DNA of 64,000 nucleotides, taken from assembly GCF_050320075.1 (NCBI RefSeq), contig NZ_CP190022.1; one strand, written 5' to 3'. The translations under genes were made by a program, and so were the position numbers. This DNA comes from Escherichia coli (lineage in GTDB: Bacteria; Pseudomonadota; Gammaproteobacteria; Enterobacterales; Enterobacteriaceae). Positions 3,182 to 64,000 of the stretch are shown here, piece by piece. The notes beneath the pieces were generated by a model that was not told the DNA's origin, ran no database searches, and was given only the letters and a program-made list of their open reading frames with translations. Position 1 is the stretch's first letter, and each line of letters starts with the position of its first letter.

Positions 3182-3433
3182 TCACACATCCTCTGCCGTT
3201 TCCCCCAGTTCATTTTCCAGTCGCCTGATGATATCTGCCTTACGCATCCCCTGCATGTGAGGCAGCAGGTCACGGACTGAAAGAGCCTGGGTGGTCCTCC
3301 AGACGGTGACGTCCACCTGTTCCGCATTTTCCCAGGCGTGCCATGTTCTCTGCGTCACGCCAAATTCTCTGGCCGCTTTTTCGCGTGACCAGAGCATGCT
3401 TTTTCGCCAGATTCGCAGTTCCCAGCCGGTCAT
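3182..3433 (-). CDS. Helix-turn-helix DNA-binding protein (83 aa)
   Basis: EKAAREFGVTQRTWHAWE looks like a helix-turn-helix segment; aaaggtg RBS before the ATG at 3433. Confidence 0.55.
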   Translation of the reverse strand: MTGWELRIWRKSMLWSREKAAREFGVTQRTWHAWENAEQVDVTVWRTTQALSVRDLLPHMQGMRKADIIRRLENELGETAEDV

Positions 3434-3450
3434 AAAACACCTTTGAAAAA

Positions 3451-3532
3451 GTGAAAAAACTTCACTTTATTTTATCATCATAATCATCAAATCAGCGCGA
3501 TAAATAAGTGTGAAAAAGTGAAGAAATTTCAC
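3451..3532. promoter_or_regulatory. Two GTGAA-N5-TTCAC palindromes in the AT-rich promoter region of the HTH gene (putative operators)
   Basis: gtgaaaaaacttcac at 3451-3465 and gtgaagaaatttcac at 3518-3532, both with aaag/cttt flanks. Confidence 0.4.
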
Positions 3533-3631
3533 TTTTTTTTGATTGTGGGTGTCGTGCTGTTTTCTCTGTTTTCACCTGTGCGGGAGTGGTGTGCCAGTGA
3601 CCACCACATGCCATTGTTGTGCCGTCGTTTT

Positions 3632-3990
3632 TCTTCAGTCGCGCCGGATGCGGCGCTCCCTGCACACCTGACGGTGTGTAAGGCCACTGCGCCTGATGGC
3701 GCAGCTGTCTCTGCCTGTCTGCCGCCGCACTGCGGCCCGTTTTCCGCAGACGGACTTTCCGGGGGTACATACACGACCACATCCCGTTTCAGTCGTCCAG
3801 GGGAGAGATGTACCAGCCACAAAACTTTTTGCCGCAGGCGTCAAAAACTTTTGCGTCTGCCCCCGGACAACTGCCCCGTGACGTGGTGAGCGTCCCCCGT
3901 CGGAAAGGTCCACTGCGGGGAAATCCCCGAAGACCCGGACGGCAGAAGGAGCTTCGCTCCTCCGGGAAATGACCTGGCTGACCCGGCAGT
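3632..3990. promoter_or_regulatory. Frpo/ssi-like leading-region repeat, copy 2
   Basis: Imperfect direct repeat of 735-1085, ending just before the start at 4011. Confidence 0.5.
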
Positions 3991-18011: not shown

Positions 18012-18103
18012 TAAAGATTATTTATGACCGAGCTCAATGCCTCATGTGTATGAGGCATTGAGCGTTTATTTCAGGCTGACACTGTTTTCAGCCCATACCT
18101 GGA

Positions 18104-19795: not shown

Positions 19796-19883
19796 AATAA
19801 ACCTCCATATTCACCTGAATATATTTTAAACTCTTCAGGTGAATATGGCAATGCTGTTTTATTGGTTTTTCTATGTTTTCATT

Positions 19884-46384: not shown

Positions 46385-48758
46385 GTGCCAATCCGGTATC
46401 TGGACAACGACAAAAATGAACTTCACTACCAGTACATACAATATCGGGAAAAATACCGTAATCTGAGCATTGGCGTACATGCGTACTGCTCGTGGACATA
46501 CCTTAATGGCTCGCCTTTTGGTGGTTTTCAGCAGATATACGCCGACCAAAACAAGGTTTGGTATGTGAATAATTATGCGTGGGGAAATTATGAGTCCGGT
46601 GGCACAATTACAGTGACATGCCTCAACCTTCCTGGTGCCGGAATCTAACCAAAAGGGCAACAGTAAGCATCGACGTGCTCTTCATCAACACCATCTCCGA
46701 TGCCGTACATTCTTGTACCTGTCATGACGTACCCGGCAGGGCACTGAATCGGCTTGTAATAAATAGAACCTCCACTTCTGCCACCGATAAAATGTGCGGA
46801 GGTCGCTTCATACCATTTACAGGCAGAATAGTTCACTTTATTGCCTCCAAGCCACAAACCGGATTGGCACTGGCCTCCGTGCCAATCCGGTTCGTGGACA
46901 AGTAGCCAAAAGAAAGAACGTTTCACGGTATACGGAATAAGTGGATGTGGGCATACACCGTCCTATGCGGTATGTCCTGATGGCAGTGATTTAGTTTCTG
47001 GTGGGTATCAGTTAACGGCTTGGTCCCAGGATAACCGGAACCCGTTTAACTCACCAGACTCAAGTTACCCAGACTGGAATAATAAACGTTGGGTTGTCGG
47101 AGGTACCGGAACTATCACGAGCTGTTTCCGCTCAGTAGCTGTATGTGCCAGATAATGTGCGACAGAGCTTTCAACGGAAACAGTGAACAGTGATGTAATA
47201 GCTGCTATACAATGTGCCATTGTACGCACTCCAATTCATCTCGCCGTTTACATCTGGATTATCTGTCGGCCAGACTCTTGTCATTGCAGTTTCCTTTCCG
47301 TCTATACGATATGTATTAACGCAAAGTTTGAATTTTCCCAGAGCCTTCGTTGTGGTTGGGTACAAGGTGAAGGATGTTACTGATGTCCACGGCGCAGCAG
47401 AACCGATTGATTTCCACGAACCGGATTGGCACTGGCCTCCGTGCCAATCCGGTTCGTGGAAAAATGCAGGAAAAGGCGATATTGAAATCGTCAAAGTAAC
47501 AGCATCAAAACTCCGCTGGCCTGGTGCTACTGCCACCTGCCCAATGGGTAAGAAGGTGATCGGGGGTGGTGCAGAATGCAGCTCTGGAATTGGCTTTATC
47601 TGGCTTGTCCGTTCAATACCTGTAAACAATAATGCCTGGTATGGCTATTGCGATACGACAGAACACATCATTGGAAAAATAACTGTACATGCCATTTGCC
47701 AATGACAAAGTGATTTACTGGCAAACCACAATGTAACTACATTTCCCCGTCAGGTCGTTCCTGTTTGTACCGCCGTGAAAATTGTATTCATCGTAGTAAC
47801 CACACTTCACAATCCTGTTCGAATCATATGTCGCAACAGAACCTGCGAAGTAATTTGGCTTCCAGCCATGCGGGTTTTCAGCATTGCTGACGCTCCAGGT
47901 ACACTGGCTGGCAGAAAAACCAGACGGCAAAGGTAGTCGTTCTCCATTTGCGATTTTTCCTGTCAGAACAGTGCTACCTGATACCCTAATCCACGAACCG
48001 GATTGGCACTGGCCTCCGTGCCAATCCGGTGTGTGGGTTGGCTTTGAATCGGACCCTGTGGGAAGCCCTATCCCGTGGCCATCTGCCACTCCTCCACAAG
48101 GCTATCTGTTGATGAACGGCCAGTCGTTTTCCTGTTCCCGGTATCCTCAGCTTGCCCGTGCTTATCCTGGCTGTAAATTGCCCGATCTGCGCGGTGTTTT
48201 TATCCGTGGCTGGGATAACGGGAAGGGACTTGCATGGTGATCCACAGACAACTCCTGGTTATCAGGCCGATCAATCAGGCGTCTATCACGAACGTGGCGG
48301 ATGGCTGAAAGGGCATCATAGTTATGCCATACTGGGCACAGGGGAGTACCACATGTGAAATGCGTCCCAAAAATATTGCATTCAACTACATTGTTAAAGC
48401 CAGCTAGGGACTCACATCTGATAGGCATACACAGATAACACCGTTACCACAGGCGTAAATTTTGTGTTGGTCTGGAGATGATTTGATATGACGCTCCCAC
48501 TGGCACGGCAAATGAAATAAATGCTGTCTTTCCGTAGGAGGGGTTATTGCTGGCATTCATACCAATGAAAGCGCCGTTCACATAGCCCTGAAGATTTGAT
48601 GTGTTGGCGCAATCACCGCCACCGGCACCATTTCCACCGGAAGCGTACACAAACAAAGCCTGCCGTTATTTCTCCCGTTAAATGTTCCCCGGTGAGAACC
48701 CAGATTGCTGTAACTTCCGTCAGGTGCACCAATCGTTCGCCACACACCGGATTGGCAC
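46385..48758. mobile_element. Shufflon: four invertible segments bounded by 19-bp sfx repeats, carrying alternative PilV C-terminal ends on both strands
   Basis: sfx copies gtgccaatccgg(t/g)(a/t/g)(t/c)(c/g)tgg at about 46385, 46879, 47441, 48018 and inverted copies at about 46851, 47414, 47991, 48740; track ORFs on both strands begin with the repeat-encoded HEPDWHWPPCQSG / PDWHGGQCQSG. Confidence 0.8.
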
Positions 48759-61851: not shown

Positions 61852-62517
61852 TCAGTGTAACAGGTGATTGCTGTGATCTATGCCCCATTCGGCTTTCGGT
61901 AAACCTGAATGCCCCACATGAAGAATGCGTGACAGCATGTTTCTGCCGCTGCCGTTCAGGCTGCATTCGCGTCCGTGCGCGAGTATAAAACCTTCATCCC
62001 GGAATATCTCTTCCACTTCTGAAGATTCGAGGGATGCCGGATGAATTAATGAAAATGCCACCGGTCTGAGCATTCTGCCCGTGGTGGAAAAGGTGTCTCT
62101 GGTACTGTTCAGCTGCAGGATATGACGTTTACCTGTTTGCGCACGGGAAAGTGTCTCACTCAGCAGCTGGTCGTTCCATGCGCACGTGCCAATCTGCCAT
62201 CCCAGACTTCGGCACGCGGAAAGAGCCGAGCGGAAGCGGTACAGGTCGTATAATGCTGCGTTATTGCCACTTTCCAGCAGTGATTTCAGCGTATTTGCTA
62301 CCGGTATGTCCGTATTAGTGGCCAGCAGTTTTCGCAGAGTCGTAAACTCTTCTGCCATTCCTCTGAACTCGCGCATCTGACGGGCAGTGTCAAGCCAGTT
62401 CAGCAGGTAACGCCGGCGACGCCGTTCGTTGTTTATGTTGTCCGGGGCGGTGGAGAGTGCTTCGAGCATATTCTCCAGTAACAGAATGACAGGGTTTTCC
62501 TGGGATAGAATGGTCAT
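61852..62517 (-). CDS. Hypothetical protein (221 aa), possible transfer regulator (TraC position)
   Basis: ORF downstream of the NusG-like gene; named by position only. Confidence 0.45.
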   Translation of the reverse strand: MTILSQENPVILLLENMLEALSTAPDNINNERRRRRYLLNWLDTARQMREFRGMAEEFTTLRKLLATNTDIPVANTLKSLLESGNNAALYDLYRFRSALSACRSLGWQIGTCAWNDQLLSETLSRAQTGKRHILQLNSTRDTFSTTGRMLRPVAFSLIHPASLESSEVEEIFRDEGFILAHGRECSLNGSGRNMLSRILHVGHSGLPKAEWGIDHSNHLLH

Positions 62518-62657
62518 AAAGGCGTCCTGAAAAAATGCCCGACAGCCGCTCTCCGTACACCCTCAGGTGTCACCGGTGCCGGGCATTGTGGAAACAGAAG
62601 GGAAAAAAATCCCGGCCATAAAGGCCGGGAAAAGTCGTCAAATTAAGACAGCAATTT

Positions 62658-63299
62658 TCATGTCAACGCTCCGTCATCAGATACCAGGTGCAGGAGCAGG
62701 GCGATCCTCGACTCCGGCAGAGGCTGTGCATCAAGCCGGAGGAGGTACTGGTAACGCGCTTTTGTCAGCCAGAGGGTGGAGGCAGCATCCAGCTCCTCCC
62801 TGGCTGCCGGATTGAGCGCAGGATCCGGGTACACTTTCATTAAAGACTGAACGATATCCTCCCTGACGGTTTTGATTTCACCGGCCATTTTCACGAAGCC
62901 CAGAAAGGCACTGTGACGGCGCAGGTGAGTGAAAGCGTGGCGTTCGGGGTCTGCTTTCAGGAAGAAGTAACCGGGAAACACGGCGTGTATATGTCGACGG
63001 TAACCACAGACTTTATCCGTGCGGCGGACTTTTTTCAGTATCAGGGGTGTCCAGGGAAGGACGTGTTGTTCGGAAAGCCAGGAAAAGAGATGTTCGCGGT
63101 TTTTGCCGGCAGGGATGTACTGAGCCAGATACCAGTTGCGTTGATGTAATTCACTGATATTCAAAATCCGGAACGCTCCGCGAAAATCGATCCCCGCAGG
63201 GGGGCTTCGATGTTGTTGTGAACGGCGAATACATAAAGCATGTGTCGGAAACAGCGGCTGACCCACGTTCAGCCCGGCCTGCAGTTCTGACAGGCACAT
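62658..63299 (-). CDS. traB: NusG/RfaH-like transcription antiterminator (TraB-like)
   Basis: NWYLAQYIPAGKNREHLFSWL...HAVFPGYFFLKAD resembles the NusG N-terminal domain; true start probably internal. Confidence 0.55.
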   Translation of the reverse strand: MCLSELQAGLNVGQPLFPTHALCIRRSQQHRSPPAGIDFRGAFRILNISELHQRNWYLAQYIPAGKNREHLFSWLSEQHVLPWTPLILKKVRRTDKVCGYRRHIHAVFPGYFFLKADPERHAFTHLRRHSAFLGFVKMAGEIKTVREDIVQSLMKVYPDPALNPAAREELDAASTLWLTKARYQYLLRLDAQPLPESRIALLLHLVSDDGALT

Positions 63300-63846
63300 G
63301 ATTTACGCACTCTTGTAAGCCTTGTGGACGGTTTCGAGGCGGGCGAAAACCGACAACTCCTGCAAACAGGATTAATGGCTGGAAAATATATTACATAAGG
63401 ATGTATCTGTGGCAAGAGTTAATATAAGTAGTTGAATAGATCGTTATATTTGATAAATCAGCATATCATGCTGATTTGTGTGCAGTGTCTGGAGGATTAG
63501 ATCGTTTAAAAATTTTAGGCGATCTCTTCTACTAAAAATGATGAAAAATACAGCATAAAAGATCGTTTGTGAAATTGTTCATTTTTTGACACAGTTCAAA
63601 AAAACGACGCTTTTTCGGGGAGTTAAAGAGGGCCACTGTAACCCTGAGAAATCATGTCGGCTTTTCAAAGCGGTGGAAAAGGGGTATATTGCGGATCGTT
63701 ATGCAGTGGCTTTTGGGATCGTCAGGATCCGGGAAGTCAGAAAACGGCAGGATGCGCCATAAGGCATTCAGGACGTATGGCAGAAACGACGGCAGTTTGC
63801 CGGTGCCGGAAGGCTGAAAAAAGTTTCAGAAGGCCATAAAGGAAAA

Positions 63847-63897
63847 CCCCCACTATCTTTCGTCGAACTTTGGCGGGATCGTGAAAGATAGTGGGGG
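63847..63897. promoter_or_regulatory. Stem-loop with TTGGCG loop motif: candidate structure I / Inc RNA control element of an I-complex replicon
   Basis: Perfect 15-bp stem cccccactatctttc / gaaagatagtggggg around a 21-nt loop containing ttggcg. Confidence 0.5.
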
Positions 63898-64000
63898 CCT
63901 CACAGAATACGGGATAAGTATATATGAAACCGTGTCAGAGATTCAACCCTTTGCAGTGCATTAACGCACGGCAATTTGTTCCCGCCATAAGCGACAGCTT

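Follow-up and report, generated by a model that had tools for sequence, protein, structure and literature searches.

The window, by which we mean the whole stretch of 64,000 nucleotides that was analysed, carries near its right end a stem-loop at 63847-63897 on the plus strand, with a perfect 15-bp stem (arms cccccactatctttc at 63847-63861 and gaaagatagtggggg at 63883-63897), a 21-nt loop (gtcgaactttggcgggatcgt, 63862-63882), and an outer 3-bp extension (AGG 63840-63842 with CCU 63898-63900). In the rep mRNA leader this structure is stem-loop I (SLI), at which the antisense RNA is directed. The loop contains the hexamer 5'-UUGGCG-3' at 63870-63875, so that both the perfect stem and the TTGGCG loop described in the original prediction are present. 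The role of this loop motif is known from the ColIb-P9 literature, summarised in PMC4705826, and by analogy its GGCG (63872-63875) would be the site of kissing contact for the Inc RNA as well as the 5' partner of a pseudoknot. Perfect hairpins with a stem of at least 12 bp and a loop of 3-30 nt were sought throughout the window, and six turned up. SLI ties for second longest among them, and three others look like shufflon repeat pairs; when the window was shuffled 20 times by mononucleotides, stems never exceeded 12 bp. The plus-strand RNA from 63830 to 63920 gave a folding energy of -33.5 kcal/mol (z = -3.57).

When positions 62000-64000 were searched against Rfam 15, the family RF01087 (PK-repZ, "Pseudoknot of the regulatory region of the repZ gene") matched the plus strand at 63839-63988 with 167.3 bits against a gathering score of 44 (E = 3.5e-39). 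The match covers positions 1-150 of the 150 in the model, i.e. its full length, which bears out the earlier identification of the hairpin as structure I of Inc RNA and RepZ mRNA. PK-repBA matched below its threshold (35.5 bits vs. 45). An E-value below 1e-26 with such a model is the published criterion for membership of the I-complex (PMC10286972). The RefSeq annotation enters neither the control RNA nor the leader peptide.

On the opposite strand, the gene for an Inc RNA (RNAI) of about 70 nt is placed at 63838-63910, its 5' end being predicted from a promoter-like site at 63917-63946 that was found by consensus scan (TTGAAT at 63946-63941, an 18-nt spacer, TATACT at 63922-63917) and overlaps the start region of repY on the plus strand. 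From this candidate promoter a minus-strand transcript would start near 63910 and end past the hairpin in UUUUCCUUU, the hairpin and UUUUCCUUU together forming what looks like the terminator-like end of the Inc RNA itself. The predicted length agrees with the approximately 70 nt reported for Inc RNA (PMC3817090), and in the numbering of PMC10724649 the 60-nt RNAI core runs from 63901 to 63842. As minus-strand RNA, 63910-63838 folds with -32.8 kcal/mol (z = -6.68), and none of 200 shuffles folded as well. CopA (RF00042), the one Rfam antisense model compared, matched the minus strand at 63925-63839 with 41.7 bits, below its gathering score of 60. Antisense binding and control have been shown experimentally for ColIb-P9 and for IncK minireplicons (PMC4705826, PMC10724649, PMC7491321), and RNAI of this type was shown in experiments to determine IncK1/IncK2 incompatibility (PMC10724649). 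IncI plasmids have a FinO-domain protein, FopA, which binds to Inc RNA and accelerates formation of the duplex (PMC7491321). A possible counterpart of FopA is a ProQ/FinO-family gene that the nearest records carry 3.2 kb beyond the right end of the window (PF04352, 58 bits; 3233-3856 in NZ_MG825371.1).

An open reading frame that starts with the ATG at 63924 (MKPCQRFNPLQCINARQFVPAISDS..., MKPCQRFNPLQC...) runs past the end of the window. With the window joined to position 1 of NZ_MG825371.1 it translates as a rep leader peptide, repY, of 29 codons (MKPCQRFNPLQCINARQFVPAISDSLWRP; 63924-64000 within the window, plus strand), and the proposal that this frame is the repY leader held, since its length is that of repY and its position also fits. 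Its last 13 nt lie outside, at virtual positions 64001-64013, with the UGA stop at 64011-64013 and hence 10 nt past the initiator GUG at virtual 64001-64003. No NCBIfam model covers the 29-aa leader peptide. Further leader elements are predicted downstream of the repY start. Stem-loop II (UUGCAGUGCAUUAACGCACGGCAA) is predicted at 63951-63974 by the minimum-free-energy fold, and the distal pseudoknot partner UCCCGCCA at 63980-63987, with its core CGCC at 63983-63986, is complementary to the loop segment UGGCGGGA at 63871-63878; the computed duplex UCCCGCCA:UGGCGGGA has 8 bp and -16.7 kcal/mol. Stem-loop III, whose 5' arm and loop occupy 63978-64000, is predicted to form by pairing of CCGCCAUAAGC (63982-63992) with GCUUGUGGCGG (63997-64007), its 3' arm and the GUG being taken from near-identical records. 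In the fold of the window joined to NZ_MG825371.1, stem-loop III buries both the CGCC and the initiator GUG just outside the window, a geometry that matches the inhibitory structure described for ColIb-P9 (PMC4705826). Upstream, a consensus scan revealed a candidate promoter for the rep mRNA at 63662-63690 on the plus strand (TTTTCA, 17-nt spacer, TATATT), a stretch that shows no variation among five I-complex plasmids, which represent three clades.

In near-identical records the initiator gene follows immediately. In NZ_MG825371.1 (PLSDB) and NZ_JBVWEU010000003.1 (RefSeq E. coli), both 100% identical to the window over its last 701 bases, an 873-nt repA starts at the base next to the window end, and it has the same position in NZ_CP023144.1 and NZ_CP016548.1, where the record origin does not split the region. 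Beyond base 64000 the expected continuation would be GTGGCGGCCCTGA, then the 873-nt repA. It had been proposed that the replicon lies immediately to the right of the window. In these records the initiator does begin at the next base, within 1 kb, but the window itself already holds most of the control region. Extension to the right was likewise expected to reveal repY and repZ; the near-identical records do contain repY and an initiator, but the latter is an IncFII-type RepA and no orthologue of RepZ. In these records it is a protein of 290 aa that scores 571.1 bits with TIGR03474, against an equivalog cut-off of 446.9, and 83.5 bits with Pfam PF02387, and a RepA4 pseudogene lies downstream of repA. 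BLASTP of this initiator against the 343-aa RepZ-type protein of IncI1/Iγ/K1 plasmids gave no significant match (best E-value 0.58), and for the 343-aa RepZ-type initiator found in plasmids typed Iγ/K1 and I1/B/O only the broader model NF040977 is reached. Between clades the DNA is near-identical up to the repY stop codon and then shows no similarity, and this boundary is a recombination junction located about 13 nt past the end of the window. Because the similarity stops after repY and RepA is of the FII type, the replicon is a mosaic, in which a control cassette of the I-complex has been placed on an FII-type initiator. Such a mosaic was reportedly described already for IncZ, by Praszkier et al. 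in 1991. It fits with the definition of the K2/Z clade on the initiator gene (PMC6361801), and it explains the misleading name of the closest record, p1106-IncFII, which is nevertheless typed IncK2/Z.

BLAST of the last 701 bases against PLSDB returned 1,686 plasmids, almost all of them conjugative (MOBP/MPF_I) and almost all from Escherichia, Salmonella, and Shigella. For the last 162 bases, which make up the control region, 49 PLSDB records show 100% identity. NZ_CP016548.1, which is among the 49, and NZ_MG825371.1 are both typed IncK2/Z by MOB-suite, the only replicon that MOB-suite lists in the closest records, and the further K2/Z-typed records examined match at lower identity. To place the allele we rebuilt the wild-type RNAI sequences of IncK2 plasmid pT.1.09 and IncK1 plasmid p754 from published mutagenesis primers (PMC10724649). 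Exact matches to pT.1.09 were found at 63855-63888, 63880-63910, 63889-63918, and 63911-63940, the last of which equals the published primer R1, and none of the p754 (IncK1) RNAI versions was found in the window. At all five positions that discriminate IncK1 from IncK2 the window has the IncK2 state (no A2 insertion, G3, C9, T24, and C40), and the allele is therefore IncK2. RNAI position 24 corresponds to base 63878, the same base that closes the 8-bp pseudoknot. By the original prediction the hairpin, with a loop motif ascribed to IncI-alpha/IncB replicons, would type the plasmid as I-complex. The complex is confirmed in that the nearest relatives are typed IncK2/Z, but the subgroup is IncK2 (K2/Z clade) and neither IncI-alpha nor IncB.

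Over its last 25 kb the window is 99.9% identical to NZ_MG825371.1, in four pieces, and the first 1.5 kb of the window matches other plasmids better. We rejected the idea that the window was cut from NZ_MG825371.1, as the identity is 99.9% only and the first 1.5 kb is closer to other plasmids. Since the window is not exactly that plasmid, the last 13 nt of repY and the initiator were read from near-identical relatives. The leader segment at 63703-63751 (GGGATCGTCAGGATCCGGGAAGTCAG) is a variant shared with the Iγ/K1-typed CP027583, and other K2/Z plasmids have GGGATCCTCGCGGTCCGGAAAGCCAG in its place. This patch accounts for the contrast between the whole 701-nt stretch, for which only two public records show 100% identity, and the 162-nt control region, for which 49 do.

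Comparative support came from an alignment of 12 control regions, taken from K2/Z-, Iγ/K1-, and I1/B/O-typed plasmids, in which the IncI1/B/O and Iγ/K1 representatives are BLAST matches and R64 (AP005147) is not among them. TTGGCGG is invariant in all 12. Compensatory double changes occur at five of the 15 stem pairs (such as C:G/U:A to U:A/A:U), and two of the seven pseudoknot pairs counted covary, with A:U in seven sequences and G:C in three. Cells are paired to 96.7% in the stem of SLI and to 95.7% in the analysis that also took in the pseudoknot; shifting the 3' partners by 1-3 columns lowered the latter figure to 47-53%, and the covariation score was reached by none of 500 shuffles.

These data bear on how the replicon may be controlled. 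In the IncFII plasmids R1 and R100, CopA blocks translation of the tap leader and an activating pseudoknot is not needed, and control of this type would agree with the adjoining RepA, an IncFII equivalog (TIGR03474, 571 bits) followed by the RepA4 pseudogene, and with the weak CopA match on the minus strand (41.7 bits). CopA, however, stays below its gathering score of 60 while PK-repZ reaches 167 bits; the pseudoknot partner, stem-loop III, and the GUG are conserved with the pseudoknot-dependent I-complex replicons up to the repY stop, the pseudoknot pairs covary, and no copB-like repressor gene lies upstream. With the pseudoknot elements both conserved and covarying and CopA sub-threshold, we rejected a pure CopA/tap scheme as quite improbable. 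A second alternative is that the control region is a remnant, the replicon being inactive and the plasmid maintained by another one. Whether the initiator is intact in the source molecule is not seen directly, as the gene is located beyond the window end; however, the closest records have an intact 290-aa repA and IncK2/Z as their only replicon by MOB-suite, and the region is 100% conserved in 49 plasmids, which leaves inactivity even less probable than IncFII-type control. The idea that the hairpin plays no part in replication and is instead an intrinsic terminator for some unrelated gene upstream can draw on the long G+C-capped stem and on TTTTCCTTT after the hairpin on the minus strand, but it is excluded for practical purposes, since the plus strand has no T-run after the stem (cctcacagaatac), no credible plus-strand gene ends upstream (traB, 62658-63299, is on the minus strand and points away), the T-rich minus-strand tail is the expected end of the antisense RNA itself, and the full 150-nt PK-repZ model matches.

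We conclude with high confidence that the region is the copy-number and incompatibility control of an IncK2 plasmid replicon (I-complex, K2/Z clade) acting through antisense RNA. The sequence elements, their complementarity, the covariation, the family membership, and the allele identity are direct observations from sequence, and we see nothing in the sequence that argues against reading it as an IncK2 control region. Transcription, RNA-RNA binding, and translational coupling at this locus we infer from ColIb-P9, pMU720, and the IncK minireplicons. In the published mechanism, translation of the leader and its termination expose a CGCC just upstream of the weak Rep ribosome-binding site, and the resulting pseudoknot keeps the SD and the GUG open for re-initiation; Inc RNA first competes for the loop by a kissing contact that blocks the pseudoknot and then forms a stable complex that blocks the SD of the leader (PMC4705826).

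Applied to the window, the rep mRNA would run rightward through the window end, with SLI of its leader displaying 5'-UUGGCG-3' in the loop, and an Inc RNA (RNAI) of about 70 nt would be transcribed leftward from the promoter-like site at about 63946-63917 and end at the same hairpin. In the absence of Inc RNA, ribosomes would translate the 29-codon repY, and termination there would melt stem-loop III. The CGCC at 63983-63986, once freed, could pair with the GGCG of the SLI loop to give a pseudoknot that would keep the weak ribosome-binding site and the GUG open, so that RepA could be made. Inc RNA would kiss the SLI loop through CGCC:GGCG and then form a longer duplex, presumably blocking first the pseudoknot and second the translation of repY. 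Through this two-step block, synthesis of RepA would fall as copy number rises.

Several other features were observed in the window. Six of its 21 GATCGT sites fall within 444 bp, at 63439-63882, all on the plus strand, and the motif (T)AGATCGTT recurs at 63439, 63500, and 63561, exactly 61 bp apart. GATC density in this cluster is about 16 per kb vs. 2.6 per kb in the whole window. The array is situated between the rep promoter and traB, which is divergent, and its GATCGT motifs do not vary among plasmids from three I-complex clades. One possibility, which we regard as unlikely, is that the array is sensitive to Dam/SeqA or bound by a protein and in this way ties the transcription of rep or tra to the state of replication or methylation. 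Also between traB and the rep promoter lies a palindrome at 63455-63477 (AAATCAGCAT-ATC-ATGCTGATTT), the arms of which read CAGAAT/ATTCTG in an I1/B/O plasmid for CAGCAT/ATGCTG here, a compensatory change that suggests a conserved hairpin or operator. No traA was found between traB and the rep leader (63300-63650), where some Iγ/K1 plasmids have it. Between traB and traC, the minus strand has a terminator-like hairpin at 62610-62630 (TCCCGGCC-TTTAT-GGCCGGGA, then TTTTTTT). The traB gene encodes a NusG-family protein (PF02357), and this hairpin may be a site of action of the NusG-like TraB. Weak Rfam matches at 62602-62692 (Hrs1, anti-hemB, and others) are due to the same hairpin and were dismissed as far below gathering. 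Farther to the left, perfect inverted pairs of ACCGGATTGGCAC / GTGCCAATCCGGT around TGGCCTCC at 46857-46892, 47411-47462, and 47997-48030 resemble what we take to be the shufflon (sfx) recombination sites of a pilV region. Two more perfect hairpins, at 18032-18063 (14 bp, loop GTGT) and 19805-19848 (15 bp, 14-nt AT-rich loop), lie in what the annotation of related plasmids gives as the excA / traY / Hok-Gef (pnd-like) region.

The control hairpin is already known, as an Rfam family, as a target of replicon typing, and as an allele that has been mutagenised experimentally, and what is reported here is a typing result and not a discovery: the window is part of an IncK2 conjugative plasmid of the poultry-associated kind. 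The basic replicon, with repA and presumably the ori beyond it, is placed directly to the right of the window. As the RNAI allele predicts which plasmids can coexist, it is useful in the epidemiology of resistance plasmids, and names or annotation derived from the initiator alone can mislead, as in "p1106-IncFII".

Among the known systems, the closest are the IncK2 plasmid pT.1.09 and the poultry-associated IncK2 plasmids (Rozwandowicz et al.; PMC5328535, PMC10724649), to which the window is identical wherever the primers allow comparison. The control region has no differences from IncK2 plasmids, and the upstream leader at about 63703-63751 is the Iγ/K1-like variant. The IncZ replicon (pIE545, pO26-CRL-125) belongs to the same K2/Z clade by its initiator gene and likewise combines I-complex control with an IncFII-family RepA. 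Other K2/Z-typed plasmids (for example, pDETEC82 and CP027673) have an RNAI loop and upper stem unlike those of the window.

With ColIb-P9 and R64 (IncI-alpha, IncI1; Asano and Mizobuchi; RF01087) the window has the architecture in common, and the mechanism is presumed to be alike: SLI with UUGGCG, an antisense Inc RNA, a 29-codon leader, a GGCG:CGCC pseudoknot, a GUG start within stem-loop III, and a leader that stops shortly after that codon. Their control region is about 86% identical in DNA to that of the window, but the loop flanks differ, the pseudoknot of the window is one G:C pair longer than the Rfam consensus (GGCGGGA:UCCCGCC vs. GGCGGA:UCCGCC), and their initiator is the 343-aa RepZ, whereas the initiator beside the window has 290 aa and is no RepZ orthologue. 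The CopA/CopT-tap-repA system of IncFII plasmids (R1, R100; RF00042) also directs an antisense RNA against a leader stem-loop, has a related loop motif (CGCCAA in the antisense RNA), couples a leader peptide to repA, and uses an initiator of the same equivalog family. Unlike it, the window falls below the CopA threshold, has no copB upstream, and carries the pseudoknot elements of the I-complex.
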